From NCBI GenBank assembly GCA_038874655.1, contig JAVZBY010000004.1:18645-82644 (forward strand): 64,000 bases of DNA. Reading direction: 5' to 3'. Position 1 is the first letter of the stretch; every line of letters begins with the position of its first letter. This DNA comes from Candidatus Woesearchaeota archaeon. GTDB lineage: Archaea > Nanobdellota > Nanobdellia > Woesearchaeales > GW2011-AR15. Shown here in pieces: positions 3,449 to 64,000 of this stretch. The translations under genes were made by a program, and so were the position numbers. The notes under the pieces were generated by a model. It searched no databases and had not been told where the DNA came from. It worked only from the letters and a program-made list of their open reading frames with translations.

Positions 3449-4876
3449 ATAGAAAATTTTATAGAAATCAAAAAAATTGTTGACCCTAGAATTTCTCTTT
3501 ATGATGATATTAATGTAAGACAATATTGTGTTGCAGATTTTTTGAGAATGCAAGAAAATGTTGATTTATTAGGTTTGGAAGGTTTAGGAAGAATTGCTCT
3601 TTTAGGATTATCAATAAGAGGACATTTACAACAAGGCCATATTGAAGGTGCATTAGGTTTTCTATCTAAAAATTTAAACCTTCTAAAACAATATCCGGAT
3701 TTCAAAAAATTCAAATTTTCTAGCTTTGATGAAAATTTTAAACCACCTTATGCAAATATTACACCTTTTGATATTTTATTTTCCTTATACTCAAACAACA
3801 TAATTCCTTATGAACCAAATCAAATTTTTAAAGAAATGCAAAGGCAAATAGATGAAGTTTTTATGTTTGTTTTAAAATTAGTAGATTCTATTTCAAATTA
3901 TGACAATTATAGAGGACAAAGAATAAAATTTCTTGAAAGCGATGGGAAAACACCTTTGTTTGGGCTAACTGATTTGTTAGAATATGAAATAACTCAACCT
4001 GAACAAGCAATGGCTTTTTTGACATGCTTTGGATGGGGTCTTGGAAAGATGGATTCTTTTGAGCATAGATATAATACAGGATTGCCTTTTGGCGGTGGCA
4101 TTAATCTACCTATTAATTTGGAAAATTTACCAAATGGAAAAAATAATATCTGGCATGATGTCATAACATTAAGCCTAATTCATTTGCCAGAAGAATTAGG
4201 GATAATACAACCACCTAATTTAGAAAAATTAATGAAACTTTTTAATTATAAAATTTTAAAACCACTTCAAGAGATTGGATTAATTCAAAACGAAGCTGTA
4301 CAAGGTCCTAATACTCTAGATGGCTATGTTAGAATATTAAGAGGTCCAGGAAGTGCTGATTTTATGTCATATGTTTTTTCTTGGATCATTTATGGCCCTT
4401 ATGGAGGGTTAGGAATGAGAGTTGCTGATTTTTGGGACACTGCTGAACAAATTTCATCAAAAATCGTCTATGGGGGTCAAGACAACCTAGCATATGAGGA
4501 ATTATTAAAATTACCAAAATTTAAAGAACTAATTGATTCTAATAAACCGTTAGATTTAGCACTTTCAAAATGGTCTTTTGAAGACCCAAAAGCTAGATTT
4601 AAACCAATTGAAAGTTGTAGTGAAAGATATTTTTTGCAGGGATATAATAGTATTAGAGGCCCATTTAATACAATAATCACACAATATAACTTTTTAAAAC
4701 ATTTACCTGAACAATTTAATAGAGGAAGCGTTGAAAGATCAATACCTCAATTCCCTGTTGGTTTTGGAAGAGCTTCCTCCAGAGGCTATTTTGATTATAT
4801 ACTACAAAGACTACATGAATTTAATAACTTAGGGATAATTCCAAATTGGTCATATTTTGCAAAAGTGCTTAATTAA
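3449..4876 (+). CDS. Orphan hypothetical protein (about 475 aa if it starts at ATA 3449; the ORF track starts it at TTG 3542)
   Basis: Frame is open from the in-frame TAA at 3443; SD-like GAGGGGTG lies just before ATA at 3449; no family recognised. Confidence 0.75.
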   Translation: MENFIEIKKIVDPRISLYDDINVRQYCVADFLRMQENVDLLGLEGLGRIALLGLSIRGHLQQGHIEGALGFLSKNLNLLKQYPDFKKFKFSSFDENFKPPYANITPFDILFSLYSNNIIPYEPNQIFKEMQRQIDEVFMFVLKLVDSISNYDNYRGQRIKFLESDGKTPLFGLTDLLEYEITQPEQAMAFLTCFGWGLGKMDSFEHRYNTGLPFGGGINLPINLENLPNGKNNIWHDVITLSLIHLPEELGIIQPPNLEKLMKLFNYKILKPLQEIGLIQNEAVQGPNTLDGYVRILRGPGSADFMSYVFSWIIYGPYGGLGMRVADFWDTAEQISSKIVYGGQDNLAYEELLKLPKFKELIDSNKPLDLALSKWSFEDPKARFKPIESCSERYFLQGYNSIRGPFNTIITQYNFLKHLPEQFNRGSVERSIPQFPVGFGRASSRGYFDYILQRLHEFNNLGIIPNWSYFAKVLN

Positions 4877-4903
4877 AAGAATTTCAAATTAAATATTATT
4901 ATA

Positions 4904-5575
4904 ATGGTAAAAAATTTTACTTATTTAGGAATTGATGAAACAACACTTGGCATAGAAACAGGTTGCATTGTTGTAGCAGCTGAAACTAAAAATCCTGAAT
5001 TAACAAAACCAAACTATTCCTTTTCTTTAAAAAAAGGTAAAGATTATCTTAGAGAAGCTGAAGCATTAGTTGATAATTATATAAACCCAAATAATCTTCC
5101 AAATTTACCTACACCAGAACAAATGATTAGAGTAGGTATGTCTAATTATCATTGGCTTCGTATTAATAATGGAAGATTCAATAGACAAGGAATAGAACAT
5201 GCTGGAGTAGCTCATTTAATCTCTTGTAATGGTTATTCTCCACAAGAATTAGTTGTCTTAATTGATGCTTTTCATGGAAACTTAGAAGAAAGTAAAGAAA
5301 TAATTTTAGAGATACTCAAAAAAAGAGAGTTTTATTTACCAAAACAAAATATAGATTTTTGGTTTTCAGGAGATAAAGCGATTCCAATTATAAATTTTGC
5401 AGATTTATTAGCACTTCAGATTGGTTTATACCTAAATGAAAAATACAGACCTTATTTTCCAGAAAGAAAAAGGTTTCCAATAAAACCACATGAAATTAGT
5501 TATGAGAAAAAAAGAATGCCCCCTATAGATACAAATTCCAGAAAAACGCTTGAAGAAATTTTAAAGAAAAACTAA
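4904..5575 (+). CDS. Divergent RNase HII-like (RNase H fold) nuclease
   Basis: YLGIDE...GCIVVAA, VLIDA and SGDK...ADLLA reproduce the DE-D-D acidic tetrad spacing; GRG and DSK motifs are absent. Confidence 0.6.
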   Translation: MVKNFTYLGIDETTLGIETGCIVVAAETKNPELTKPNYSFSLKKGKDYLREAEALVDNYINPNNLPNLPTPEQMIRVGMSNYHWLRINNGRFNRQGIEHAGVAHLISCNGYSPQELVVLIDAFHGNLEESKEIILEILKKREFYLPKQNIDFWFSGDKAIPIINFADLLALQIGLYLNEKYRPYFPERKRFPIKPHEISYEKKRMPPIDTNSRKTLEEILKKN

Positions 5576-5587
5576 ATTATAAAAAAA

Positions 5588-6193
5588 TTATTTCTTTCCA
5601 ATTTCTTTTTTCGCCTTTTCACTAACAATAGCAGAATTTCCACTAGGATCACTAATAATTAATGTTGCTTTTTCTCTTCCCCATAAAATTCTTTGTATTT
5701 TTTTCAACTGATTTTTTGCCTTTTTTTGAACACTTGGATCATCATCATCTTTTAAATCTTCAATTACTTTTTTAACTCTATTTAATATGCCTTCTACATT
5801 TGTGACATAACCATTTGAAATTGGTCCAGGAGTTATTTCTATTAAATGTGGAATTTTTATAGTTGCTTGACTTGATTTAACCACTCTTATATTTAAATCA
5901 TTTTCTGATTCAATTTCTAAAGTATATTTAACTGGTTTTCCGTCATTATCTGTTTCAACATCAGCCATATGATAATTACAATTTGAGCAATCCATTGAAA
6001 ATAGATAACACTTACCAAAATAGGGAATTTCTCTTTCCATTTCTCTTAATGTCAATGTTTCTTTATGACACATAGGGCATGGTTGATTTTCTAAAACATC
6101 CATTCCCATATTTTCATTTGAAATATTCTTTGTATTTTGAGATTTTTCTAATTCTGAGTTTTCATCATTTTTATCATAATCCTTATTTACCAT
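5588..6193 (-). CDS. ZPR1 zinc-finger protein
   Basis: CPMC...IPYFG...CSNC; TNVEGIL; DPSGNSAI. Confidence 0.93.
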   Translation of the reverse strand: MVNKDYDKNDENSELEKSQNTKNISNENMGMDVLENQPCPMCHKETLTLREMEREIPYFGKCYLFSMDCSNCNYHMADVETDNDGKPVKYTLEIESENDLNIRVVKSSQATIKIPHLIEITPGPISNGYVTNVEGILNRVKKVIEDLKDDDDPSVQKKAKNQLKKIQRILWGREKATLIISDPSGNSAIVSEKAKKEIGKK

Positions 6194-22211: not shown

Positions 22212-23003
22212 TTAATTTTTTAGTTTATTTTCAACTAACTTTATTTCAATATCCCCAAACTGAACCTCTTGTAATAAATCAATTTTTCTTTGAAAATCCA
22301 AATGCAATAAAGGAATAAAAGTAAATACTTTTTCCTCTTTTGTATTATCTGGTAATAAATGCTCAAATTTTAATTTTGCCTCTTTATTATTTTTTTTGAA
22401 AAAAGAAATGATCTTATTATATACATCTTTTATAACTAAGCTAATATCTCTCGGTTTTTCAGGAGCTTTTACTTCAGGCTGATTCACAATTTTAGCAGGT
22501 CTTCTTTGATAAACTTCTAAAGCCTTTTCTAATGCCTTAACTAAATCAAAAACACTTACTTTTCTTTTTCTTGGCTGAGGTGTTCTTGGATACAATGTTG
22601 GTTTTTCACTTAATTCATTAAAATTATAACTACTTATATCAATAGCACCATTCTCATAATTAACCAATTCTTCAAAAGGAACCTCATCATTAGAATTTGC
22701 ACTTGCTATTAAAGCATCTAACGCACTAATATCCTCTTCTAAAAACCTATATGACTTAACTCTTAGCATTATTGCTGCAGCCAATAAAACTTTTCCAGAA
22801 ATCTTTAAATCCATTTCTTTTAATTTTTTTAATCTCTCTAAAAACTTATTTGCCAATAAAGAAACATCAATATCCCAAGGATCCATTTTCTCAGAACTTA
22901 CTAAATCATAAATCATAGATTGCCATGTAATCTCATCATTATTAAAAAGAATATTAAAAATCTGCTCATTTGATTTTAACTCTGGATTAATGGCTTCTAA
23001 CAT
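22212..23003 (-). CDS. scpA: Segregation/condensation protein ScpA (kleisin)
   Basis: MDPWDIDV; FIPLLHL; Q..FGDI. Confidence 0.9.
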   Translation of the reverse strand: MLEAINPELKSNEQIFNILFNNDEITWQSMIYDLVSSEKMDPWDIDVSLLANKFLERLKKLKEMDLKISGKVLLAAAIMLRVKSYRFLEEDISALDALIASANSNDEVPFEELVNYENGAIDISSYNFNELSEKPTLYPRTPQPRKRKVSVFDLVKALEKALEVYQRRPAKIVNQPEVKAPEKPRDISLVIKDVYNKIISFFKKNNKEAKLKFEHLLPDNTKEEKVFTFIPLLHLDFQRKIDLLQEVQFGDIEIKLVENKLKN

Positions 23004-23125
23004 TTTTTTTTAATTTTTATGAATACTTAAATAATTAACTCAAATAACACTACAATGATATTATAAATTTGTATACTAGTATATAAATTTTGCGAAAAAT
23101 ATTTAAATAAAAAAATATTAAAATT

Positions 23126-24703
23126 ATGTTAATGGCAAATTATTTTAAAAAATTTGTATCTTTTAAGATTAAAAGCAGAAATGTAAATTTATATTTTTCC
23201 ATTCCAAAAAATAGTTCTGAATTTAATGAAGACTTACTAAATAAAGAATTTGAATTTTTTAAATCCATTTTATTAAAACAGCATCCTTTTTTTCAAGATA
23301 ATAAATTTAAAAATAATTTTGACTTAGCAACTTTGCCTAGAGATAATGAAGCTGAAGAAGAAGAAAGACTATTAGCAAAGGATATTTTGCAACTAAAATT
23401 AAATTTTAAATATGTAAAAAATATAAATGAAATTAAAGCACCTTCAATAAAATATTTTGAAGAAAAAACTATCATGCTTTTAGCACCTTTAATTGGACAA
23501 ATATTAAAGAGTGATAATAATGTTATTCCTGATGGAGAAGGGGATTTCACAGTAAAAGTTAAAATTGGTAAAGCTATGGATTTAGGTGAAGAAAATTTAG
23601 CTATTGTTTATGAAACGCTCTCTGATTTAGAAACCTTATATCTAGGCTTTCATTATCAATTAATTGCAAGATATCTAGTTTTTCCCTATTATCTTAGTGG
23701 TGAAAAAACATTTTTTAGTGCCTTTCCTATAAAATGTATAATACATGAGATTCAACATTATAAACAAATGACTTTTACTAATTGGGAAAGAAAAGTAAAA
23801 AATGCCATAGAAGAAAAATTTACTACTCCTTCTAAATTAAGTCCAAATTCATTATTATTATTTTGGGCCTTATGTGAATTATACAAAGAAGCTGAAGCAT
23901 ATTTCATGGATTCAAAAAAAAATCAAAGAAGAAAAATAGACATGAATTGGATCTATAATTTCAGAAAAAATTTATTCACTATGGTCTCTCTTCCCAAAAA
24001 TGAAAAAGAATTATGGGAATTTTATAACAAATATATCGATGAAAACACCTCTTTATATGTTAATGCTCTATTAATGATGGCTACAATCTCTTTTGCTGAA
24101 GCAAAAAAAGATGGTCATCCTGAACAAATAATCTTATATAAAGATGTCAATCCAGAAATAAAAAAATTAGTTAATGAAATTGAAGTTATGATAAATGTTC
24201 TTTTAAATAATAATAGTGAGAATCTAAATCTTTTAAAAAATAAGATAATTGAATTATACAAATTACTAAAACCTTACCTTCCTTATCTAATCGCTAACAA
24301 ATTAAGAGAAAATATAAATAATCTCTATAATAATAATTTAACAATAATAAAAAAAGGATGCTTAATTATTAAAAATGAAGTTTTACCTTTTTATGATAGA
24401 TTTGATTTGTCTAAATTAAATGAGATCATGACAAAAGAAAAAATATTTTATTATGGCCAAGTTCCTGAAATTTATGTTAATAGAAGTTTTAATTTTGTAA
24501 AAAATTATGTTACATCTACTGGTAAATTATCTCCTGCAACACATTTCGGTTTTATAAAGAAATATGAAGATGCATGCAACATTTTAAGAATAGACAGAAA
24601 CAATAGAGTAATTGATTTATTTTTTTATAAAGAATTAAAAAAATTGACTCTCGAAAAAGATAAAAAAATGTCAGAACAAAAAGAGGCATATTTATTAGGA
24701 TAA
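23126..24703 (+). CDS. Hypothetical protein with zincin HExxH motif
   Basis: IIHEIQH followed by a downstream ELYKEAEA possible third ligand. Confidence 0.6.
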   Translation: MLMANYFKKFVSFKIKSRNVNLYFSIPKNSSEFNEDLLNKEFEFFKSILLKQHPFFQDNKFKNNFDLATLPRDNEAEEEERLLAKDILQLKLNFKYVKNINEIKAPSIKYFEEKTIMLLAPLIGQILKSDNNVIPDGEGDFTVKVKIGKAMDLGEENLAIVYETLSDLETLYLGFHYQLIARYLVFPYYLSGEKTFFSAFPIKCIIHEIQHYKQMTFTNWERKVKNAIEEKFTTPSKLSPNSLLLFWALCELYKEAEAYFMDSKKNQRRKIDMNWIYNFRKNLFTMVSLPKNEKELWEFYNKYIDENTSLYVNALLMMATISFAEAKKDGHPEQIILYKDVNPEIKKLVNEIEVMINVLLNNNSENLNLLKNKIIELYKLLKPYLPYLIANKLRENINNLYNNNLTIIKKGCLIIKNEVLPFYDRFDLSKLNEIMTKEKIFYYGQVPEIYVNRSFNFVKNYVTSTGKLSPATHFGFIKKYEDACNILRIDRNNRVIDLFFYKELKKLTLEKDKKMSEQKEAYLLG

Positions 24704-24736
24704 TAATAAAATACAAAAATTATAAAATTCTTTAAT

Positions 24737-26113
24737 TTAATTTTTTAGTTCATCTTCAAATATCTTATATAATCTCTTCTTGAATTTCAAAGGTATTGTT
24801 CTAGAATCATGAATTCCGTAATATTTCTTTTTTAATTCCTCTGCTCTTGGTTCTACACTTTTTAATAATTCTCTTTTAAATTTATCTATTAGTTCTCCTT
24901 TAAAACCATTCTTATAAGCCAAGTAAAATGCATATAATTGCTCTTCTGAACCACAACCTGAAGCATCATAACCGACAGAACAACCTTCTTTTTTTTCAAC
25001 ACCAAAACAAGAAAATAAATGCTCGTTTTCTTTAACTAACATGTCAGTCCTAAACCCAATACTTTTCGGATCTAGATTATTAGCTAACATAAAAATATAA
25101 ATTCTAGCACACTTAGAGCAATGCTCACACCAATAATGCTTTTTTCCATATTCATTTTCATCTGGAAAACAAGACATTTGATATTTACCAATTTCTTTAT
25201 ATCTCTTGTGAAGAATTTTCATAATAGCTAACTCATACAAAGGTTCAATAAAACTTGACACATTCATTCCTGTTAATAAAAAAGCCATATTATCCATTTC
25301 TTTTACCCAAAAACTTGTTTGATCATATACAGGATAACTTAAATATCCATCTTTATTAATATAAGTATCATCGCAACTTTTTTCATCACCAAATAAAATA
25401 TATTTTGCTTTTTCATAATAAGCTATGGGCATTATATCAAAGAAAAGTTCTGTCATTAAATGACCATATCCTAACTCTGTTCTAGGTAATTTCCAAAACC
25501 TATAATCATGAATTACACCTGTACTATTTTCAAAAGTATAAACCTTGACATTAAATTCTTTGGAAAATTTTTTAATTAATTCCTTTTTATATTCATTTTC
25601 TAATTTAACTGCATTATCTAACATAAAAACAGGAATTGGCTCTAAACCTAATTCTTTTGCTAGTGCAAATGTCAATAAACTATCTTTACCAAAAGACATA
25701 TTTACTATTACTTTTTCTTTCAGATCAATCTTTTCTTTTGGATACTTTATTTCATAATTAGCAAAAGAAACCTTCAAATTCAAAAAATTTTTAATTTGTA
25801 ATTCTGTTGAAACATTATCTACATCAGCACAAAAACTTAAATTGTTTAAATGTGCATTAAATATTTGTTGTTTAAATAAAGGATAAGAAGTTTTAAATTC
25901 AATCTCTTTTAAATTTGAATTAGAAAATTTCCAATTTTGACTTAACATCTGTGGTAAGTGCAAAACTTTTAGATATGCATAATTATCAATAAAAATATCT
26001 TTGAGATATTCTGGATAATTATCCCATATATCTTTAGAATAAACTAAAAAAAAATCTTTTTCATCTATTGTTAATTTTAAACCATTATCTGTTTTTTTAC
26101 AATCAACTTTCAT
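24737..26113 (-). CDS. MurL-like PP-loop ATPase (paralog 1)
   Basis: SFGKDS PP-loop; GDEKS; SFIEPLYEL; YQMSC; WCEHCSKC; motif order matches MurL (GGKDS, SNERS, SLLRPLSEL, SSC, WCxxCPKC). Confidence 0.7.
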   Translation of the reverse strand: MKVDCKKTDNGLKLTIDEKDFFLVYSKDIWDNYPEYLKDIFIDNYAYLKVLHLPQMLSQNWKFSNSNLKEIEFKTSYPLFKQQIFNAHLNNLSFCADVDNVSTELQIKNFLNLKVSFANYEIKYPKEKIDLKEKVIVNMSFGKDSLLTFALAKELGLEPIPVFMLDNAVKLENEYKKELIKKFSKEFNVKVYTFENSTGVIHDYRFWKLPRTELGYGHLMTELFFDIMPIAYYEKAKYILFGDEKSCDDTYINKDGYLSYPVYDQTSFWVKEMDNMAFLLTGMNVSSFIEPLYELAIMKILHKRYKEIGKYQMSCFPDENEYGKKHYWCEHCSKCARIYIFMLANNLDPKSIGFRTDMLVKENEHLFSCFGVEKKEGCSVGYDASGCGSEEQLYAFYLAYKNGFKGELIDKFKRELLKSVEPRAEELKKKYYGIHDSRTIPLKFKKRLYKIFEDELKN

Positions 26114-26175
26114 TTTCACAACACTCTATACATTGCTTATCTTTATCATTATTTTTATTTCTTAAATTCTAATTA

Positions 26176-27258
26176 CTACCTTCTCAACAAATTATCATTT
26201 CTTAACTCAGCACTTAATTCTTTTAATAATCCATATCTTTTCATTGCTTCATATAGAATGCTTAAAATAATATCATCATAACTCATTCCTGCTGTAAAAC
26301 ATGCTTTTGGAAATCTTGAATTTTCCAAAGGATCTGGCATCAATCCAGGCAATGCATTAATCTCTAAAACATTCGGAATTCCATTTTTATCCAATCTTAT
26401 ATCTAATCTTGCTAAATCCACACATCCTAAAACTTTAAATGTTTTCAAAGAAACAGCTTTTATCATTCTTTCTAATTCTTTTGAAATTTGTGCTGGACAA
26501 ACTACAGGATCAACTGGATTATTTGGATTATCCCAAATCCATTTAACCTCATAAGAATCAAACTTATTAACATGTTCTGGTAAATAATCAAAAGTCACTT
26601 CTACAATTGGCATTACTTTTGGAGGATTATTTCCCAATATTGCTACTGTAAATTCTCTACCCTCTAAATATTCTTCAACTAAAGCTTCTTGATGATAATT
26701 ATTTATAACAAATCTTAATTGTCTTCTTAATTCCTCTTCGTTCTTTACTAATGAATCATTTCTTATTCCTTTTGATGAACCTTCTGCATTTGGTTTTACA
26801 AAAAGAGGAAAATTTAACTCTGGATTTAATTTTTGATTCCAATTACTAAAAATCTGAAATTTTGGTGTTGGAACTCCATAATATTGTAAAATTTCCTTTG
26901 TTCTTCTTTTGTCCAAAGTTAAAGCTTGAGTAAAAACACCACTTCCAGTATAAGGTATTCCGAGCATATCTAAAATAGCAGGAACTTGACTTTCTCGAGA
27001 ACCTCCATTTAAACCTTCAGCTATATTAAAAACAAAATCATAATTACCATATTTAATTTTTTCAAAAAAATCTTCATTTGCCTCAACAATTTCAGCAATA
27101 AAACCCTTTTTTTCTAATGCATTTTTAATTGCAGTTGGAACTGCCAAATTATCATACTCAGCATAATAATCTTCTGGCATATTTGCAGGTGGCTCTTTTT
27201 TTAAATTAAAAGCAACTGCAATTCTTGGTATAGGGTTTTTAAAAACAAACTTTTTCAT
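26176..27258 (-). CDS. ATP-grasp ligase, D-Ala-D-Ala ligase-like family
   Basis: FNIAEG; IPYTGS; FVKPNAEGSSKGI; VEEYLEGREFTV; ARLDIR; LEINALPGL; GGAGGT SD. Confidence 0.9.
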   Translation of the reverse strand: MKKFVFKNPIPRIAVAFNLKKEPPANMPEDYYAEYDNLAVPTAIKNALEKKGFIAEIVEANEDFFEKIKYGNYDFVFNIAEGLNGGSRESQVPAILDMLGIPYTGSGVFTQALTLDKRRTKEILQYYGVPTPKFQIFSNWNQKLNPELNFPLFVKPNAEGSSKGIRNDSLVKNEEELRRQLRFVINNYHQEALVEEYLEGREFTVAILGNNPPKVMPIVEVTFDYLPEHVNKFDSYEVKWIWDNPNNPVDPVVCPAQISKELERMIKAVSLKTFKVLGCVDLARLDIRLDKNGIPNVLEINALPGLMPDPLENSRFPKACFTAGMSYDDIILSILYEAMKRYGLLKELSAELRNDNLLRR

Positions 27259-27813
27259 TTATATAGACCTCCATTTTTATTTTTTAAAAATACTTATCCT
27301 CTATTTTAGTATTATTTATAATAGCATTAATTATTAAAAAAAATCTTTTAAAATGAGAATAAAAAACAAAAAATAAAATCAAAATAATTGTAAAAAGAAA
27401 AAAAATCTCTAACAAAATAGGATTAAACCCTTTATTAAGGATACTCAATCTATCTCTAAAAAACTGATTAACAAAAAATTGACTATAAAAAAGATTTAAA
27501 TTTAATAAAATTAGAAAATTATAAAATAGACTTGAATTTAAAAATCTAGAATTTAAACTAAACTTTATCAAACCTTTTTTAAAAGAATCAATCCTGAAAG
27601 ACAAACTCAATTGCCTATTTATCATTTAGCTTTTATCACTTCCTTTTTTATTTTTATATTTTGAGTTTATCTTTGAAATTTTCACAATAGTTATATTTCA
27701 AAAAATTATTTTTAACAAAAAAATAAAAGAAAAAGTGGTATATAAATTTATTCATTTTTTTTATCACTTAGCAAAAAAAATTATTTCTTTCATTAATCTA
27801 AAATTGTAAAAAT

Positions 27814-28014
27814 TTAATACTTATCCTCATCATCTTCATAATCTTCGTAATCTTCGTCATCATAGTCTTCATCATCATAGTCTTCATCATTATAGTCTTC
27901 ATCATCATAGTCTTCATCATAATCTTCATCGCTATACTCTTCGTCATCATATTCTTCGTCATCATATTCTTCAACAAAATCTTCATCTTCATAATCTTCT
28001 TCGTGTCTAGCCAT
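27814..28014 (-). CDS. 66-aa Asp/Glu/Tyr-repeat peptide (candidate precursor or substrate)
   Basis: GGAGG SD 5 nt before ATG 28014; MARHEEDYEDEDFVEEY(DDEEY)2SDEDYDEDY(xDEDY)4EDYEDDEDKY; synonymous variation between repeat units. Confidence 0.8.
   Translation of the reverse strand: MARHEEDYEDEDFVEEYDDEEYDDEEYSDEDYDEDYDDEDYNDEDYDDEDYDDEDYEDYEDDEDKY
27850..27975. repeat. Imperfect 15-bp tandem repeat (coding strand GATGAAGACTATGAT-like) encoding xDEDY/DDEEY units
   Basis: Repeated tcatcatagtcttca units on the + strand. Confidence 0.85.
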
Positions 28015-28256
28015 TTTAACCTCCATCCACACAAATAACTGAAATTTTAGTAAAATCAAATCTATTTAAATCTTATTTTTTTTTAGAAACTAAAAAAAAT
28101 TTAAAACAAAATTTATAATTTGCAAAAAATAATTTACAAATAATTAAAAAAATAGAAACTTATTTAAAGAGAACCTTTAATAAATAATATTAAAAATATA
28201 TTTTAAAAAATAGTAAAAAAATTAAGAATAAAAATTATAATTAAAAAAATTAAAAA

Positions 28257-29654
28257 ATGGATGAGCTTTCTATAAAATACAGCATATCAAAAAAAGGATT
28301 TAATGTAAGAATAAATAATAAAACCTATTCAATAAAATATCCGCAAATAATTTGGGAAACTTTCCCAAAAAAAATTAAAAAAATAACAATTGAAAATTTT
28401 GTTTTTTTAACTACATTTACATTACCAATGCTCTTAAATAAAAGAAAAGCATTTTTTCACATGAATTCTCCTTTATTAGGAAGTTTTTTTGTTAAACCAA
28501 TTTTATATTATATCCCTGCATGTGCTGATGAATATAACAGAGATAGCTTTACATTACTAAAAAGGTTTATAAACTCCACTTATGATTTTAAATCTTATAA
28601 CCCAACTTTTTTTGATTATAATCCTAAAGTTAATTACAGAAGTGTTCATTTATTCACATTTGGAAAAGATAGCTTGCTTTCTTATTGCTTAGCAGAAGAA
28701 TTGAAATTAAATCCTATTTTATTATATGTCGAAGAGCCTGACACAGCATATAAAGATAAAAATGGAAAAATAAAAAAAACATATGAAAACAAGCACAAAG
28801 ACATATTAATAAAAAAATTTAGTGAAGAATTTAAAAAACCTATTTATAAGATAAAACATCAATTAAGCTTAACAAGAGAAGCTCCTCACTTAGGTGTTGA
28901 TGAACCTGAATTACCTTATGGCTCTCAATTAACTGAATATGCTCTATTAACTATTCCCTTTAACCATTACTTTAAAGCAAAATACATGGTATATGGGAAT
29001 GAAGCAAGCTGTTCAAGTACTTATGTAAATAAAGAAGGCTTTATAACAAACCCTGTTTATGATCAATCCGGTGAATGGGTAGTTGAAATTTCTAAGGTTT
29101 TGAAAGTATTGACAAAAAAAATGTCAGCAATTTCTTTAATAGAACCAATCCATGAATTATTAATCACAAAAATTTTACACACTAGATATCCAAAGCATGC
29201 TAAATATCAGATGTCTTGTATGGCAGCAAACAATTATGCAAAATATTCAAGATGGTGTCATAATTGTTCAAAATGCGCTAGAATGTATGTTTTTTTAAAA
29301 GCATTTAATATTGATGTTAAATCCGTAGGTTTTAAAGAAGATATGTTCAAAAAAGAAAAAATGCATTTTTACACTTTATTTGGTAAACCTGAAGAAAATG
29401 CATTACCTTATGATTTAGCAGGAGTTGGCAGAGATGAAATGTTATTAGCTTTTTATTTATCTTACAAAAATGGTTCAAAAGGTTATTTGATTAAAGAATT
29501 TGAAAGAAAATTTTTAAAAGAAGCTGAACAAAGAAAAAATGAACTTTATAAAGAATTTTTCAGCATTCATGAATCTTTAACAATACCAAAAAGAATGCAC
29601 AAAAAAATAATTAACATATTTAAAGAAGAAATAGAAAAACTAAATTTACCATAA
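28257..29654 (+). CDS. MurL-like PP-loop ATPase (paralog 2)
   Basis: TFGKDS; GNEASC; NPVYDQS; SLIEPIHEL; YQMSC; RWCHNCSKC; PYDLAGVGRDE; collinear with paralog 1. Confidence 0.7.
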   Translation: MDELSIKYSISKKGFNVRINNKTYSIKYPQIIWETFPKKIKKITIENFVFLTTFTLPMLLNKRKAFFHMNSPLLGSFFVKPILYYIPACADEYNRDSFTLLKRFINSTYDFKSYNPTFFDYNPKVNYRSVHLFTFGKDSLLSYCLAEELKLNPILLYVEEPDTAYKDKNGKIKKTYENKHKDILIKKFSEEFKKPIYKIKHQLSLTREAPHLGVDEPELPYGSQLTEYALLTIPFNHYFKAKYMVYGNEASCSSTYVNKEGFITNPVYDQSGEWVVEISKVLKVLTKKMSAISLIEPIHELLITKILHTRYPKHAKYQMSCMAANNYAKYSRWCHNCSKCARMYVFLKAFNIDVKSVGFKEDMFKKEKMHFYTLFGKPEENALPYDLAGVGRDEMLLAFYLSYKNGSKGYLIKEFERKFLKEAEQRKNELYKEFFSIHESLTIPKRMHKKIINIFKEEIEKLNLP

Positions 29655-29747
29655 TAATCTAAAAATCAACTAAAAAAACTTGAAAAAGCATAATTACTTA
29701 AAAATTACACAAAAAGAGATATAAAGAACTACCTTTTTTTTATATTA

Positions 29748-30761
29748 ATGAAATTAATCAAAGTAAAAGGGACTAATTATCAAATTGGTTATAAATTAGG
29801 CCACATATTTTCCTCTGCAATAAAATATAGAATAAAAAAATTTAAAATAACTAAAAGATTAATTGATTCTAAAAAAGATTATTTAGAAAAAACTTTAAAA
29901 CTCTGTGAAATATACCCTAATTACTTACTTGAATTAAAAGGAATTTCTGATGGCTCTAATACAAATATTTATGAAATTTTAATGCTTAATTTACTAGGAT
30001 TACTTGATATAAAAAGATGTAGCACAATAGCATATAAAGGAAAAAATAGTTTTATTGCTCATAATGAAGATGGGGACACTTTTGAAAGAAAAAAAGATTT
30101 TGCATTAATAAAATATGAAAAAATAATTAATGAAATAGAATACAAAAATAAAAATAATAAAAAAAACAAAAAATTTTATTTTTACTCATACTTTTATCCT
30201 GGTGAACTTTTAGGAGCAACATTTTCATGGAATTCTTATGGTTTAATAATAACTGTTAATTCAATAAGGTCTAGATTAAGCAATATTCCAAAACTGCCAA
30301 GAGTTTTTGTAGCAAGAGCACTATTAGAAGCAAAAACAATAAATCAAGCAATTAAAATAATAAAAAATTCAAAAAGCTCTGGTGGCTTGCATTATCTTAT
30401 AATGAAAAAAACAAATAAAAAATCAAACAATGTAAAAGAAATAGTTTCAATAGAAAGATATCAGAATTCTACTAGTATTGAAAAAATAAATAACATTTAT
30501 ATTCATACTAATCACTATATTCACAAAAAATTTCTAAATAAAACAAAGCCACATAAAAATTCTGTAATAAGATATGAAAGATTAAAAGAATTAATAGAAC
30601 TGCATAGAGATAAAATAATAAATGCAGATAAAGAAATTCTTTTAAAAATTATGAGAGATAGAAAAACAAAGCCAAACTCAATATACAACAAAAAAAATGA
30701 TACCAATCAAACTCTTGCTACTTTTATAGCTTTGAAAAATAAAAAATATGTATTTTTATAA
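29748..30761 (+). CDS. C45 family Ntn-hydrolase/acyltransferase
   Basis: G..YQIGYKLG; ELKGISDG; R-CST nucleophile; AHNED; HTNHY; SVIRYERL. Confidence 0.88.
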   Translation: MKLIKVKGTNYQIGYKLGHIFSSAIKYRIKKFKITKRLIDSKKDYLEKTLKLCEIYPNYLLELKGISDGSNTNIYEILMLNLLGLLDIKRCSTIAYKGKNSFIAHNEDGDTFERKKDFALIKYEKIINEIEYKNKNNKKNKKFYFYSYFYPGELLGATFSWNSYGLIITVNSIRSRLSNIPKLPRVFVARALLEAKTINQAIKIIKNSKSSGGLHYLIMKKTNKKSNNVKEIVSIERYQNSTSIEKINNIYIHTNHYIHKKFLNKTKPHKNSVIRYERLKELIELHRDKIINADKEILLKIMRDRKTKPNSIYNKKNDTNQTLATFIALKNKKYVFL

Positions 30762-30797
30762 AATAAATCAAAAATAAAAAAATAAAAAAAATTTTTA

Positions 30798-32552
30798 TTA
30801 AAAATTAATTAAAGGTATTATATCTGAAATTTTTAACTTTTTTCTTGTAATTAATAATCTAGCAAAAAAGAACAACAAAAAAAAGAAAAATATTATCAAA
30901 GTTTCTTTTACTAAAAACATTAAATTTAGTTCATTCAATAAAATTAAATCTCTTAACAAAGAGATTCCATGTGTCATTGGCATAAAAGGTGATATAAATT
31001 GAAAAAACCCTGGAGAAGTTTCAATTGGAAAAGTTCCTGCTCCAGAAGTAAGTTGAAGCATCAATAAAATTATAGCAATGATTTGTCCTATTTTTCCAAA
31101 TAAAACCATAACAAATTGAATTATAGCTAAAAATGTCCATGATAAAAATACTGTATAAATTAAAAAAAGTAAAATATTTTTAGGTTGTAATCCTATAAAA
31201 AGAATTAATGAAAAATCCAAAATTAATGCTTGTAATAAAGCCAAAATTGCTGGAAAAATTGATTTGCCTAATGTAATAGAAAAATCTGAAAATTTTGAAA
31301 TAATTAAACTATTATCTCTCTGATTTACAAATATCATAATAATTAACGCACCAACCCACAATGCAAGTAATATAAAATAAGGAGATAATGCTTCTCCATA
31401 AGTTTCTGCATTATCTTTACTTACATCAATGACAATAACAGGATTAAACAACATTTCTGATTTTTCCCTTATTTTCTGTTCAGAAAAATCCTTTTTCAAA
31501 TTATCACTTGCTTTTGCTAATTCTGAACTCAACTCATTTGAACCGTAATAAGACAACTTTATTCCATTTTCTAAAGTTGAAATACCTCTTTCTAATTTTC
31601 TAGAACCCTCTCTTAATTTTTGGCTTCCTTCATAAATCTTCTCTAAATTTTCACTTAACTTATATGAGCTTAAATAAACCTCATTATGCGCATTAACAAA
31701 AACAGAATTTTGTTTTTTCAAAAATTCCATTTTTAATTTATAACTAGGATCTATTACACCTTTATCTGCCAATGAAGAGATTAAAACAGATAATTCATCT
31801 ATATTTGAAGAAAATTGTTTGCTTCCTTCATATAATCTTTTATTTGCCTCTGCTAATTTTTCTGAACCATCTTTTACTTTATTTAAATAAAAACTTATAT
31901 CTTCAATCCCTTCACTTAATTGATTACTTCCTTCTTTTAAAAGATTGCTTCCTGACTTTAATTTTTTAATTCCATTGCTTAAATCAGTTGAAACATCAGA
32001 AGCTTCAGACATATTATTTAGTAAAGATTCTGAAATTGGAATAATTTCATCTACATACTTATCTCTTATTTTTTCCTTCAAAGAATTATTTAACTCTTTA
32101 ACTATTTCAAAACTTATTCTAGAACCTAAAAAATTATTAACATCTCTTTTCTCAAAAAATATTTCTGCTTTAACTGGCTCTTCTTTTATAGAAAAAACAT
32201 TTTTAGTAAAATCTTTTGGTATAATTATAATTCCATAATATTTCTTATTATATAATCCGCTCATAGCTTCATCATAATTAATAAAATAAAAATTAAAGTC
32301 CTTATTTTTCATTTCATCAATTAGCTCATCACCTAAATTTCTGTAATCACCATTATAAATATAACCTAAATCTTGATTAACAACTGCTATTGGTAAATTT
32401 TTAACATTTCCATAAGGATCCCAAAAAGCCCATAAATAAAGAAAACCATAAATTAAAGGAATAAGTAAAATAACAATTATAGCCAAAATCTTAAAAGGAT
32501 CTCTTAAATATTTTTTAATTTCTGAAATTGCAATAAATAAGCTATCTTTCAT
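30798..32552 (-). CDS. YhgE/Pip family ABC-2 type membrane protein
   Basis: YLWAFWDPYG; LPIAVVNQD; YGEALSPYF; LQLTSGAGTFPIE; AGGTG SD before ATG 32552. Confidence 0.9.
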   Translation of the reverse strand: MKDSLFIAISEIKKYLRDPFKILAIIVILLIPLIYGFLYLWAFWDPYGNVKNLPIAVVNQDLGYIYNGDYRNLGDELIDEMKNKDFNFYFINYDEAMSGLYNKKYYGIIIIPKDFTKNVFSIKEEPVKAEIFFEKRDVNNFLGSRISFEIVKELNNSLKEKIRDKYVDEIIPISESLLNNMSEASDVSTDLSNGIKKLKSGSNLLKEGSNQLSEGIEDISFYLNKVKDGSEKLAEANKRLYEGSKQFSSNIDELSVLISSLADKGVIDPSYKLKMEFLKKQNSVFVNAHNEVYLSSYKLSENLEKIYEGSQKLREGSRKLERGISTLENGIKLSYYGSNELSSELAKASDNLKKDFSEQKIREKSEMLFNPVIVIDVSKDNAETYGEALSPYFILLALWVGALIIMIFVNQRDNSLIISKFSDFSITLGKSIFPAILALLQALILDFSLILFIGLQPKNILLFLIYTVFLSWTFLAIIQFVMVLFGKIGQIIAIILLMLQLTSGAGTFPIETSPGFFQFISPFMPMTHGISLLRDLILLNELNLMFLVKETLIIFFFFLLFFFARLLITRKKLKISDIIPLINF

Positions 32553-32591
32553 TATAAACACCTAATTTATACCTTTTGTTTATGTTTAATT

Positions 32592-33281
32592 TTAAATTAT
32601 GTTTAATTCTCCTTTTTCAATAAAAAGTACTCTATTAGCAATCATTAACTCTTGTTTTCTTTTTGTCGTGAAAATAAGAGTTTTTTCTTTAATTAAAGGT
32701 TCTATCTTTTTCCAAAAAAATATCATATTATCTTCACTCAATTCTTTTGTAATTTCGTCTAATAACAAAACTTCTGGATCAGAAATATATGCTATCAAAA
32801 AAGATATGAATGCTTTTTCAACAGCACTTAAATCTTTAATACTTTTATTTGATATTTCAAACAATTTCAAAAAATTTTTTATCTTATCATTAGAAAAGGA
32901 AAGTTTTAAGCTTTTAGCATAATATTCAAGAATTTCAAAAATATCAAAATCCTCAAAAATAGGTTTAATATTTTCTATAGCTGAAACTCCTATCTTAAGT
33001 TTAATATCTGCTTTTTCATAAAAAATAATCTCTCCTTTATGTTCTAAAAAACCTGCCATGCATAAAATTAATAAGGTTTTTCCACTCCCAGAATCACCAT
33101 AAATTGCAATTTTTTCTTTTTCAAAAACTTCAAATGAAATACCCTTTAGTAGTGGTTTATTAAAAAAATATAAACTTAGATTATTTACTTGTAAAATTCT
33201 TTTTCTAGTTAAGTTATCTTTTTTAAAATTGAAATAATACTTTGATTTATTCTCTATATTTAACATAATAAAAGAGAACAA
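32592..33281 (-). CDS. ABC transporter ATP-binding protein (degenerate signature and H-loop)
   Basis: Walker A GDSGSGKT; Walker B LLLDE; LSAVE signature; TTKR in place of the H-loop. Confidence 0.8.
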   Translation of the reverse strand: MFSFIMLNIENKSKYYFNFKKDNLTRKRILQVNNLSLYFFNKPLLKGISFEVFEKEKIAIYGDSGSGKTLLILCMAGFLEHKGEIIFYEKADIKLKIGVSAIENIKPIFEDFDIFEILEYYAKSLKLSFSNDKIKNFLKLFEISNKSIKDLSAVEKAFISFLIAYISDPEVLLLDEITKELSEDNMIFFWKKIEPLIKEKTLIFTTKRKQELMIANRVLFIEKGELNII

Positions 33282-33360
33282 AAAACCTATTTATAAAATT
33301 AACCACTTTATAGTAGTTTTAAAACTATTTATAGTATTTTTAAAAGTTTGAAAGTTAAAA

Positions 33361-33433
33361 TGGGCCCGCCCAGACTCGAACTGGGGACCTACTCCGTGTA
33401 AGGGAGTTGTCATAGCCACTAGACCACGAGCCC
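33361..33433 (-). tRNA. tRNA-Val(TAC)
   Basis: GGGCTCG...ACTCC CTTACAC GGAGT...CCCAG TTCGAGT CTGGG CGGGCCC A cloverleaf. Confidence 0.95.
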
Positions 33434-33473
33434 AAAACTAAAAAAATTAAAAAATAAAATAATAAAAACATAT

Positions 33474-34067
33474 CTAAATTTGGTTTTGTTTATTTAATTT
33501 AGAGTTATTTGCATTTCTACTAGGTCTTATTTTTTCTGCTCCTTTTCCTTTATTTCTTAAACCTCTTGATTTTTTTGCTGATGAAGTTAATCCACGATAA
33601 ACTCTACCTTTATTAGCTGGATTTTTTAACCATTCAAAATAATGTCTTGATAAAACCTCTGGATGATTTCTATCTACCATAATAATTTCATACCAAAGAT
33701 ATCTACCATCCTCTCCAACCCAATAAGAATTTAAAACCTCGCAATTGGGATATTTTTTATTTGCTCTTTGTTCTGCAACTGTTTGATAATTCATCTCTAA
33801 AATTTTTCTTTGTCTTTGTGTTTTAGGTCTTCTTGCTTTTCTTATTGTTGGTCTCATTCGACCTCCTCTAGAAACTCTTTGCCTAACAATAAAAACTCCT
33901 TGAATTGCTTTATAACCTAATTCTCTTGCCTTATCTATTCTTGTTGGTTTTTCAATCCTGACTGTTACAGGTTCATTTCTCCATTGTATTAATCTTTGTT
34001 TCCAGAGCTCAGAAAGATTTTCTCTAGGTTTTTTCCACAAATTTTTCACATATTTATATAAACCCAT
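33474..34067 (-). CDS. rpl15e: 50S ribosomal protein eL15
   Basis: PTRIDKARELGYKA; EVLNSYWVGEDG; RGLTSS; ATG 34067 after GAAGGTGA. Confidence 0.97.
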   Translation of the reverse strand: MGLYKYVKNLWKKPRENLSELWKQRLIQWRNEPVTVRIEKPTRIDKARELGYKAIQGVFIVRQRVSRGGRMRPTIRKARRPKTQRQRKILEMNYQTVAEQRANKKYPNCEVLNSYWVGEDGRYLWYEIIMVDRNHPEVLSRHYFEWLKNPANKGRVYRGLTSSAKKSRGLRNKGKGAEKIRPSRNANNSKLNKQNQI

Positions 34068-34079
34068 TTTATTCACCTT

Positions 34080-61912: not shown

Positions 61913-62116
61913 TTATTTTTTTGATTTTTCTCTATAAAATTTAGATATTTCTAAATGTAATTTTGCTTTTTCATAATCACCTTTTTCTGCAAACAATATA
62001 GATTTTTTATGATGATAAATTGCTTTTTTATGATTTGATTTCAAAAGAGAAAATAAAAGATACATAACTACAAAAAAAGAGACAATTGAAAAAAATAACA
62101 TAATAAGTATTAACAT
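61913..62116 (-). CDS. Small membrane-anchored protein (single TPR-like helix pair)
   Basis: N-terminal TM; AEKGDYEKAKLH; GGGAGGGG SD. Confidence 0.6.
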   Translation of the reverse strand: MLILIMLFFSIVSFFVVMYLLFSLLKSNHKKAIYHHKKSILFAEKGDYEKAKLHLEISKFYREKSKK

Positions 62117-62251
62117 AAAACCCCTCCCTTTGTATACACTTACAAATAGTAATAATATTTAAATATTTCTATATACTATAATTAACCAAATTATAGTTTT
62201 AATTAATAAATTTCAAATAATTTAGTCTGGCTGAATAATAGATCTTCAAAA

Positions 62252-62324
62252 TGGGCCCGCCCAGATTCGAACTGGGGAACTCTCCCGAGTCAGGGGAGCG
62301 TCATAGCCACTAGACCACGAGCCC
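62252..62324 (-). tRNA. tRNA-Val(GAC)
   Basis: GGGCTCG...CTCCC CTGACTC GGGAG...CCCAG TTCGAAT CTGGG CGGGCCC A. Confidence 0.93.
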
Positions 62325-62572
62325 TTGTAAATCATAAAAAATAAAGTAATTGGATTAAATATATTATTAAAAAGGTTTCTATTTTATTTTGTAAACCTTT
62401 TTATTTTACAATTTAAATTGAAAAATAAACTCGCTAAGTACACTAGACACACTAGACATTCTGTTGTGAAGTATTTAAAGAAAATTAACTATCAAATTTC
62501 TAAATAAGTGAAAAAAAATTGAATTGTATAAGTCGAAAAATAAAAAATAAAAAAATTAAAAAAGGTGAAAAA

Positions 62573-62689
62573 ATGGAAGACATTAAAAAAATTGAAGAAA
62601 TTTTTTTCAATCAAATAAAACAATTAACACTAAAAAATTTTGATATGTATCACAAAAAAAGATTATTGTTAAAACAAATTGAATTTTAA
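62573..62689 (+). CDS. 38-aa microprotein A (below the ORF-track cutoff)
   Basis: AAGGTGA SD; MEDIKKIEEIFFNQIKQLTLKNFDMYHKKRLLLKQIEF. Confidence 0.6.
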   Translation: MEDIKKIEEIFFNQIKQLTLKNFDMYHKKRLLLKQIEF

Positions 62690-62767
62690 TAAAAAATAAA
62701 CTGTTATTTAAGAGTATTTAAAATAAAATAATAAAAAAAATTAAAAAATTAAAAAAAGGGTGAAAAA

Positions 62768-62884
62768 ATGATAAGACAAAGAAACATTGTAAAAGAAATT
62801 GAAGAAGAACTCTTAAACGAGGTTTATAGCCAAATCTTTATAGAAAATTTTGAAAAAGAATTAAATGCTTATTTTGAAGAATAA
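62768..62884 (+). CDS. 38-aa microprotein B, similar to A
   Basis: GGGTGA SD; MIRQRNIVKEIEEELLNEVYSQIFIENFEKELNAYFEE. Confidence 0.6.
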   Translation: MIRQRNIVKEIEEELLNEVYSQIFIENFEKELNAYFEE

Positions 62885-62976
62885 TCTTAAAGAAAAAAAT
62901 TGAAAAAAATTTTTTTATTTTAAAAATTTTTATTTAAAAGAAAATTAGATTATTGTAAGTAAAAAATAAAAAAAAT

Positions 62977-63600
62977 TCATAAAATCTTATACAAAGCTTT
63001 TGTATTATAAGGATTATCTGAAACATTCTTAAAATCAATTAAAAACTCTGCATTTAAAACAAAATCTTGATAGAATTCGTTTAAATTATAATTAAAGCTA
63101 TTTGATTTTAGAGAATATAAAACCTCAAAATTTTCATTATTTCTATGTTTAAATTCTTGTGTTTCTTCATTGCTAACAGATCTACTAAAACTAGAAAAAA
63201 ATTCTTTTTCTATTACTTCTGTCAAATTTGAATTAACATTTGAAAAATCAAAAACAATATTATTTAAACCTAATGGATTGTTTGATAAATTTTTTGTTGA
63301 AATCCATTTATTAAACAAAATCAATAATTGGTCTAATGTCCATTTATCTAAAGTATTTAAAAAATTTTGATCCTTTATTCTCACAAATGAATCTAAAACA
63401 TCATTAAAACTAGAATCATCTGATTTACTTGGATCAAAATAGATTTTTTGCTGATTTTTTTTATCTAATGAACTCAAAAAATTTGCTATATCTTCTATAT
63501 TTTTCTTTAAAGAATCTACCTCTGCAAATTTCATAATTTCTCTATAACTTTTTGTATCTAAAAAAATTGAATTAATTAGTTCTAAAGTTATAGTATCCAT
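62977..63600 (-). CDS. Hypothetical protein
   Basis: 207-aa ATG ORF downstream of a TATA-like TTTATATA; no family recognised. Confidence 0.6.
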   Translation of the reverse strand: MDTITLELINSIFLDTKSYREIMKFAEVDSLKKNIEDIANFLSSLDKKNQQKIYFDPSKSDDSSFNDVLDSFVRIKDQNFLNTLDKWTLDQLLILFNKWISTKNLSNNPLGLNNIVFDFSNVNSNLTEVIEKEFFSSFSRSVSNEETQEFKHRNNENFEVLYSLKSNSFNYNLNEFYQDFVLNAEFLIDFKNVSDNPYNTKALYKIL

Positions 63601-64000
63601 AGAATATTATATGCCCTTTTGATATATAAACTTTAAGAAGTTTCATTAAAAGTTTTTTAAAATAAAAAAATAAAATTTACAATAGAAAAATAAAATATTT
63701 AATAATTAAAGATATAGTAAAATATTTTTTCAATATTGTAAATAAAAAAATAAAATTATAATAAAATATAATAATTTATAAAAATATATAATCAAAAAAA
63801 TATATAAAAAATTAATAAAAAATTAAAATATTTAATAAATTTTTATAAAAAATTTCAATATTGAAAAATAATAAAAATTAGAAAAAATTTGTGCAAAAAA
63901 AAAATTAAAAAAACAAAAAAAATAAGAATAATTATCAAAAAATTGAACTAATATTTATACAAAAATAAAATAAAAATCAAAAGATTCTTTTTCTTACAAA

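Follow-up and report, generated by a model that had tools for sequence, protein, structure and literature searches.

The 64,000-nucleotide (nt) stretch of DNA analyzed here (the window, G000:C4:18645-82644) comes from a hot-spring DPANN archaeon whose nearest named relatives in homolog searches are Woesearchaeota/Nanoarchaeota metagenome-assembled genomes, and it carries a gene cluster that includes a Ddl-like ATP-grasp ligase and two MurL-like PP-loop enzymes. In our codes G denotes a genome (G000 being this one), C a contig, and L a gene locus examined. Judged from sequence comparisons, the conserved unit consists of one or more Ddl-like ligases and one or more MurL-like enzymes, with a KamA-type aminomutase as a partner. 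We consider it an even call whether this unit specifies a pathway in which a ligase builds a beta-lysyl peptide and ATP is spent on activating its C terminus, probably for epimerization, and which operates independently of the very acidic peptide encoded next to the ligase. All of the component families are known, but the combination of a lysine-type 2,3-aminomutase, a Ddl-type ligase, and one or two MurL-type enzymes appears to be undescribed in the literature searched; term searches of PMC8939145 and PMC11915815 turned up nothing relevant. If the pathway is real, it would provide murein-free archaea with a route to beta-lysyl/D-amino-acid peptides that is independent of both ribosomes and nonribosomal peptide synthetases, and the MurL family would gain a second physiological role.

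Genome G000 is 1.26 Mb in 17 contigs, is 97% complete, and has a G+C content of ~25%; the sequencing runs with matching DNA are hot-spring metagenomes, one of them perhaps the source sample, and no RNA runs are listed. A preliminary description of this DNA had named eight open reading frames (ORFs), and the coordinates of all eight were confirmed, except that its 26113 is an internal ATG of the first MurL-like gene, whose ORF runs to a GTG at 26119. Its family calls (Ddl-like ATP-grasp, two MurL-like, C45, and YhgE/Pip-ABC) agree with the Pfam and NCBIfam results. The ORFs are, in base-pair order (aa, amino acids):

23126-24703, plus strand: ORF with an HEIQH motif, 525 aa, no Pfam or NCBIfam family
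24737-26119, minus strand: MurL-like PP-loop enzyme 1, 460 aa if started at the GTG or 458 aa if started at the internal ATG (26113), NCBIfam MurL
26176-27258, minus strand: Ddl-like ATP-grasp ligase, 360 aa, PF07478
27284-27625, minus strand: doubtful ORF, hydrophobic and of low complexity, lying between the ligase and peptide genes, 113 aa, no family
27814-28014, minus strand: acidic microprotein, 66 aa with 45 Asp/Glu and 13 aromatic residues, C terminus ...DEDKY, member of a Tyr/Trp-ended acidic family
28257-29654, plus strand: MurL-like PP-loop enzyme 2, 465 aa, NCBIfam MurL, 38% identical to copy 1
29748-30761, plus strand: C45 Ntn-type acyltransferase/hydrolase, 337 aa, PF03417 and NF040521, 94 nt downstream of MurL-like 2
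30798-32561, minus strand: YhgE/Pip family membrane protein, 587 aa, TIGR03061 and TIGR03062
32592-33281, minus strand: ABC ATPase paired with the YhgE/Pip gene, 229 aa, PF00005

Two sets of loci were compared with the window: 16 from related genomes, and 80 MurL-like loci from a species-representative genome collection. Of the 16 relatives' loci, 11 hold a Ddl-like gene along with the MurL-like gene; the two mostly adjoin or overlap, and the Ddl-like gene is often present two or three times. A Ddl or KamA homolog lies no more than three genes from the MurL-like gene in 35/80 species-representative loci. A KamA/Ddl match at E <= 1e-20 was found in 12/16 MurL-positive versus 6/45 MurL-negative genomes, a count that is descriptive only because these genomes are related and therefore not independent. 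Among genome-reduced DPANN archaea the module is widespread, and it is present in candidate phyla radiation (CPR) and other bacteria too; in CPR bacteria, MurL-like genes adjoin a Ddl homolog. The preliminary description had made its reading depend on whether homologs of the window enzymes keep company with each other and with a short acidic ORF: the Ddl-like and MurL-like genes do co-occur, but in most cases the acidic-peptide neighbor is lacking, and the C45 gene recurs in none of these loci.

The KamA partner was absent from the preliminary description. In relatives, the ligase ortholog forms the C-terminal half of KamA-Ddl fusion proteins of 685-700 aa (fused in L015, L016, and L027); the window ligase and residues 340-683 of the L016 fusion share 68% identity, and the architecture LAM_C + Radical_SAM + Dala_Dala_lig_C is found in 83 of the best 120 longer homologs of the window ligase. 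In G000, KamA is a separate gene on another contig (G000:C3:189168-190439), with no acetyltransferase gene beside it. The orthologs closest to the window ligase (71%) and to the G000 KamA (72%) overlap by 20 nt in G010, and in G017 a KamA with the active-site motifs of the stand-alone G000 KamA directly follows a MurL-like gene. The G000 protein passes the TIGR00238 family cut-off (326 vs 199 bits) but no equivalog cut-off (AblA, 438.7 vs 525.4). The Asp pair aligned to D293 and D330 of PDB 2a5h, which we take to be the residues that hold the lysine side chain in lysine 2,3-aminomutase, is kept in 16/16 KamA sequences and fusions checked; in glutamate 2,3-aminomutase this pair is replaced.

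Two lysine 2,3-aminomutase pathways are well known: AblA/AblB, which makes N-epsilon-acetyl-beta-lysine, and EpmB/EpmA, which beta-lysylates elongation factor P. In both, as would be the case here, a KamA-family enzyme with the lysine-binding Asp pair provides the beta-amino acid on which a dedicated enzyme then acts; the module differs in that this second enzyme is a Ddl-type ligase, neither a GNAT acetyltransferase nor a lysyl-tRNA synthetase paralog. Two further fusion loci were noted. In L119 (G040:C5, 6559-10130), the gene after a KamA-Ddl fusion is a strongly hydrophobic 472-aa ORF that looks multi-spanning and is tentatively read as resembling the major facilitator superfamily; no MurL-like gene was found in the 100%-complete G040. 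In L014 (1242-3328), the G015 fusion is split into ORFs of 541 and 168 aa, with a TGA within the match, reflecting either a frameshift/pseudogene or an assembly error.

The window ligase matches PF07478 at 6.9e-38, and its best matches are all Ddl or Van ligases, but it misses all Ddl cut-offs (NF002378, 199.7 bits vs 243; TIGR01205, 167.7 vs 245.65). Aligned to E. coli DdlB (1iov), it keeps K144, S150/S151, K215, R255, D257, E270, N272, G276, and S281; K144, K215, R255, D257, E270, and N272 are presumably the catalytic, ATP, and Mg residues of DdlB. Y216 and L282, which we assume to be substrate-site (specificity) positions, are changed to W and R, respectively, and there is a 4-residue insertion. 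The ligase thus shares its domain and its catalytic and Mg/ATP residues with the DdlB/VanA family, but is set apart by its sub-cut-off scores, Y216W, L282R, the insertion, and the fusion to or overlap with KamA in relatives. A metagenome scan with the ligase returned one short locus of 42% identity, which was left unused.

For the two MurL-like proteins of the window, the MurL model is the only Pfam/NCBIfam match (MurL_Xanthmoales, 25.2 bits, E 5.4e-6 for copy 1 and 24.8 bits, E 7.1e-6 for copy 2), and neither reaches the equivalog cut-off of 700 bits. The same model is matched by 24/24 aligned members of the family (best E among the 24, 4.3e-12), and no other family is matched consistently. 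The match is collinear, with residues 283-451 aligned to profile positions 276-444 of 447, and the protein lengths are similar. In the ESM Atlas the nearest clusters are MurL epimerase (score 0.97), and 27/30 matches carry PF26298 (MurL_epimerase_C) or PF26299 (MurL_N). Precomputed PF26298 annotation is present on two relatives; scanning the window proteins directly against Pfam gave nothing at E <= 0.01. Motifs seen in the alignment are an SFGKDS PP-loop, the invariant GNEKSC, and the cysteine cluster SC...WCxxCSKCAR. An AlphaFold 2 model of MurL-like 1 (pLDDT 93.6) has as its nearest solved folds QatC (E 3.2e-5), QueC (TM 0.74, target-normalized), and Cap9, followed by TtuA, MnmA, and TilS. 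Because MurL is the only model matched and QatC and QueC are the nearest folds, both proteins are remote MurL-superfamily members with a QueC-like PP-loop core. Whether the PP-loop proteins would model as QueC had been raised in the preliminary description; the fold is indeed QueC/QatC-like, but the sequence family is MurL only. The family is large: a homolog search gave 244 proteins, most of them unnamed, spread over DPANN archaea, Bathyarchaeia, Gammaproteobacteria, and Omnitrophica, and a profile run against 1.84 billion cluster representatives gave 436 clusters of 50% identity at E <= 1e-10.

In a tree of 100 MurL-like sequences, copy 1 falls in a clade whose genes lie directly after Ddl or KamA-Ddl, and copy 2 falls in a "second copy" clade together with the second MurL-like genes of L034 (fusion-MurL-MurL) and L050 (KamA-Ddl-Ddl-MurL-MurL). 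Both paralog clades share one operon in relatives, for example, fusion-MurL-MurL in G009. As the two copies are thereby placed in clades drawn from the same operons, the divergent arms of the window are most simply read as a single ancestral operon that was rearranged or split.

The proposed pathway would begin with the KamA-type radical-SAM (S-adenosylmethionine) and pyridoxal phosphate (PLP) 2,3-aminomutase, which is predicted to convert lysine to beta-lysine. The Ddl-like ligase, to judge from its retained catalytic residues, would then couple beta-lysine and a second amino acid via an acyl-phosphate, yielding a small beta-lysyl peptide; since relatives carry two or three ligases, the product may be longer there. 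By homology to MurL, both MurL-like enzymes would adenylate the product at its free C-terminal alpha-carboxylate and probably invert L to D. MurL itself, as described in passages of PMC5808125 and PMC8788868, consumes ATP in the presence of Mg, yields AMP, and turns a terminal L-Glu into D-Glu, in that direction only. The order of events would resemble the MurL pathway as those passages present it, in that a ligase adds an L-amino acid and a MurL-family enzyme then acts with ATP on the new C-terminal residue. The module nevertheless has a ligase of the ATP-grasp Ddl type, not the Mur-ligase-fold MurD2, in a genome without Mur ligases; it also has two MurL-like paralogs, not one, plus the KamA aminomutase. 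A last step is conceivable in this lineage, in which the C45 Ntn hydrolase might cleave or transfer an amide bond.

The rest of the genome fits such a pathway. There are zero Mur_ligase_M matches across the whole 97%-complete genome, in a search that was positive in 12/14 control genomes, so the absence of Mur ligases that had been remarked on for the window is true beyond it. No match to Asp/Glu racemase or to class-IV aminotransferase was found in the genome, and its sole Ala_racemase_N match is a 228-aa ORF, presumably of YggS size; a full-length alanine racemase was not found, nor was any other source of D-amino acids, free D-Ala included, identified. The fallback reading of the preliminary description, that an archaeon devoid of Mur ligases has a D-amino-acid peptide pathway, stands as a proposal; the Ddl-like and MurL-like genes do co-occur widely. 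The hydrophobic ORF after KamA-Ddl in G040 and the peptidase genes of families S58 (G015) and M20 (L041) hint at a small-molecule product.

Several observations weigh against the beta-lysyl peptide pathway. The KamA gene of G000 is not on the contig that carries the ligase and MurL-like genes, and 4/16 MurL-positive genomes have no KamA/Ddl match. The homology to MurL is remote (25 bits, where the cut-off is 700), and the nearest solved folds, QueC, QatC, and Cap9, are amide-forming or protein-modifying enzymes; epimerization is therefore an extrapolation. A ligase is missing from 45/80 MurL-like loci, and the family must therefore have other contexts, such as those with DUF1611 and DAP-epimerase or with ThiF. 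Neighbors outside the module core are also heterogeneous: among 137 flanking genes in 35 loci, the commonest families were ThiF (6), NDK (6), SecA (5), spermine-synthase-like (5), and Orn/Arg decarboxylase (3), and there was no universal fourth component. Finally, the peptide gene and the module are co-directional and less than 700 nt apart in three of the four genomes that have both, in two different native peptide contexts, and pure coincidence does not comfortably explain these juxtapositions.

Some of the loci surveyed deserve mention in their own right. L042 (167-7327), L045, and L046 hold ligase-less tandem MurL-like pairs followed by DUF1611, DAP-epimerase-like, MgtE-like, and Nramp genes; this arrangement is a different, likewise uncharacterized, MurL-like context. 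At the other extreme, the clusters of L041 (579-10952) and L021 (6813-16485) have two or three Ddl-like genes, one or two MurL-like genes, and KamA, together with an extra ATP-grasp_3/4 protein and a PLP decarboxylase of the Orn/DAP/Arg type; an M20 peptidase precedes the ligases in L041. Downstream of the KamA-Ddl fusion in L014 (G015), the end of the MurL-like gene is overlapped by a Peptidase_S58 gene of the DmpA/BapA family (4657-5805, plus strand). A beta-aminopeptidase may here be seen in its natural setting and, were the pathway confirmed, the S58 gene would point to a candidate natural substrate of these enzymes.

The acidic peptide was the centerpiece of the preliminary description, and its composition, 45 Asp/Glu among 66 residues, was confirmed by count. 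Its gene has a perfect Shine-Dalgarno sequence (GGAGGT, 4 nt 5' of the ATG) and an oligo-T run after the stop codon, and a genome-wide ORF scan found it to be the sole G000 ORF with a 30-aa window of at least 60% Asp/Glu. Relatives of the peptide were detected via a degenerate DNA pattern; protein queries missed even the known G004 and G015 members, and so their blanks are uninformative. The pattern matched in 11/20 genomes of the taxonomic family, against 0 matches for a reversed control pattern. Inspection left 12 peptides in 11 genomes, 22-66 aa long with 61-78% Asp/Glu and a Tyr or Phe every few residues; nine end in Trp, two in Tyr, and one in Asp, and GGAGG lies just 5' of the chosen ATG in 9/12. 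The G118 peptide, at a contig end in a genome without a match to either enzyme, was set aside. For the window, G015, and G004 peptides, there was no family match at E <= 10, LysW included. These peptides make up a genuine, conserved family of microproteins; this acidic, Trp-terminated family appears to be undescribed in the literature searched.

A few candidates were discarded along the way. A 78-aa ORF of "MMKT" repeats (window 27798-28034, minus strand) is the same repeat read in another frame, an artefact of a 15/30/42-nt periodic repeat. The pattern match on G040:C3 is antisense to a membrane-protein ORF, and that in G003 lies inside a 218-aa ORF. The notion that the peptide is an attenuation leader was rejected because it also precedes unrelated genes (ScpA, CorA) and keeps conserved termini. 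Zinc-ribbon ORFs (CxxC...CxxC) adjoin the peptide at L014 (898-1050, plus strand; G015, 50 aa with an acidic tail) and L027 (12807-12944, minus strand; G004, 45 aa); the idea that these are LysW was dropped, as only generic zinc-ribbon models were matched, below cut-off.

The distribution of the peptide does not follow that of the enzymes. It was found in 4/10 MurL-positive versus 6/10 MurL-negative genomes of the taxonomic family, and only 3/12 peptides (G000, G004, G015) adjoin a ligase. Two genomes, G011 (97% complete) and G016 (assembled as one 1.16-Mb contig), carry the peptide but gave neither a MurL-like nor a KamA/Ddl match. In G010, the peptide and two enzyme clusters are on three different contigs, and in G001, which belongs to the same genus, MurL-like 2 has a 291-aa ORF upstream of it instead of the peptide. 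An acidic short ORF near the core was found in only 1/80 MurL-like loci. The preliminary description had envisaged a write/epimerize/erase pathway acting on the acidic peptide, in the manner of RiPPs (peptides made on ribosomes and modified after translation), with the C45 enzyme as eraser. Precursors of RiPPs, graspetides included, travel with their enzymes, and this one does not; C45 homologs, too, are found in 0/80 and 0/16 loci, and that scheme is mostly unsupported. In our estimate, the chances are evenly balanced that the acidic peptide is a separately conserved microprotein, not the enzymes' dedicated precursor, that lies inside the gene island by chance.

Where it adjoins the module, the peptide has two different native contexts, ScpA/L15e in G000 and MarR-like plus CorA in G004, and both also occur elsewhere with the peptide alone. 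In L139 (G011:C3, 2967-4875), the peptide stands by itself between L15e and ScpA; the same anchors are ~10 kb apart in the window (22212-34076), with nine extra ORFs between them. The L15e-ScpA interval is thus an insertion/deletion polymorphism centered on the microprotein gene. The peptide is next to a CorA Mg2+ transporter gene in G010 (L142, 8413-9896), G019 (L141, 1478-2915), and G004 (L027, 12704-14664), and MoxR AAA and DUF58/vWA genes are near the G010 peptide; the proximity of CorA may hint at a cation-related role.

Could the microprotein nevertheless be the substrate of the module or a LysW-like carrier? The ligase would add beta-lysine or another amino acid either to the carboxylate of the terminal Trp/Tyr or to side chains of Asp/Glu, the MurL-like enzymes would adenylate and epimerize the new C terminus, and an Ntn hydrolase (C45 here, S58 in G015) would release or trim the product. 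In G000, G004, and G015, three of the four genomes with both, the peptide gene is co-directional with the (KamA-)Ddl gene and lies 298-606 nt upstream of it. Flanking synteny differs among these juxtapositions, and two differing native contexts suggest that more than one juxtaposition took place; we therefore keep a functional link as a minority view, unlikely on present evidence. The aromatic C terminus is conserved in 11/12 peptides, three hydrolase families (C45, S58, and M20) recur at cluster edges, and MurL works on a peptide C terminus in the passages of PMC5808125 and PMC8788868 referred to above. ATP-grasp enzymes that load an acidic carrier are also known, namely, those of AmCP/LysW type (AmCP, amino-group carrier protein), to go by the portions of PMC11726168 that concern them.

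The counts given above for G011, G016, and the MurL-positive and MurL-negative genomes speak against that role, as do the separate contigs of G010, the 291-aa ORF in the peptide's place in G001, and the 79/80 MurL-like loci that have no acidic ORF near the core. Each peptide gene at a ligase is followed by an oligo-T run and then by a gap of at least 298 nt. The parallel with LysW/AmCP, as described in those portions of PMC11726168, is that an ATP-grasp ligase stands beside a small, very acidic polypeptide.

RimK/S6 and the graspetides likewise pair an ATP-grasp ligase with a small acidic polypeptide. From all of these the window differs in that the peptide has no LysW or other family match, the ligase is Ddl-type and not RimK/LysX-like, and peptide and enzymes each occur alone. 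A prediction of a complex of the ligase, MurL-like 1, and the peptide scored 0.00, but was run without controls and is evidence neither way. It would be more unusual still, and we think it rather improbable, that the microprotein is a new type of carrier or scaffold comparable with LysW or PEARL scaffold peptides. In that event, the Ddl-type ligase would load beta-lysine on its C terminus, the MurL-type enzymes would activate and epimerize the growing end, and an Ntn hydrolase would free a D-configured beta-peptide, the microprotein presumably serving other enzymes in genomes that lack the module.

A different question is whether the MurL-like enzymes of the same module are epimerases at all. 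Acting through an acyl-adenylate as do QueC, Cap9, and QatC, they might instead form amides, either amidating the product carboxylate or coupling it to an amine or a protein N terminus; this seems to us a fairly unlikely outcome. QatC, QueC, and Cap9 are the best structural neighbors (values above) and share the PP-loop ATP pyrophosphatase core with MurL-like 1, and the MurL sequence match is far under its equivalog cut-off. The conserved Cys cluster also resembles what we take to be a QueC-type metal site. QatB may be a substrate of QatC (PMC13376578). On the other hand, identity to QueC, Cap9, and QatC is only ~13-19%, and the window proteins have an additional domain at the N terminus and a helical one at the C terminus. 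A Pfam scan of the window ORFs found no QatABCD or CBASS partner genes near the MurL-like genes, and no glutaminase or amine-donor gene recurs among the 137 flanking genes. Furthermore, MurL is the only family matched by 24/24 members, collinearly and at similar length, it is also the nearest Atlas cluster, and the Cys/Glu pair of the invariant GNEKSC could act as the acid/base of an epimerization.

It is very improbable that the ligase is a true D-Ala-D-Ala (or D-Ala-D-X) ligase, with beta-lysine playing no part and the module supplying murein-type dipeptides to an envelope polymer or a bacterial host: its best matches are all Ddl/Van and a Ddl homolog is found beside MurL-like genes in CPR bacteria, but it falls under every Ddl cut-off with its specificity positions changed, neither a Mur ligase nor a full-length alanine racemase was found in the genome, and KamA fusion of the orthologous ligase is widespread.

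The remaining genes of the island are not conserved beside the module. The C45 protein is a clear family member (PF03417 at 5.1e-29; NF040521, 154.2 bits vs a cut-off of 85), but with no homolog in the 80 species-representative or the 16 relatives' loci, it is perhaps best regarded as a lineage-specific neighbor or add-on. The preliminary description had noted an HExxH gene and a YhgE/ABC exporter as flanking genes. The HExxH ORF and the YhgE/Pip gene have no homolog in the 16 and 80 other loci, and ABC matches were found in 2/80 loci only (L068 and L078); these genes are probably bystanders. The YhgE/Pip and ABC family assignments themselves hold, both YhgE/Pip cut-offs being passed (TIGR03061, 160.2 bits vs 96; TIGR03062, 181.3 vs 102) and the ATPase matching PF00005 at 2.5e-15. 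The label "protease-like" for the 525-aa ORF rests on its HEIQH motif, which is present, and on sub-threshold Atlas leads (<= 0.88); no Pfam or NCBIfam family was matched. Its position is taken by an unrelated 349-aa ORF in G001, and it is absent in G002. The doubtful 113-aa ORF at 27284-27625 matched no family at a meaningful E-value and has no homolog in the other loci. Well away from the cluster, the G+C content falls to 18% at window positions 62001-64000, compared with ~25% elsewhere.

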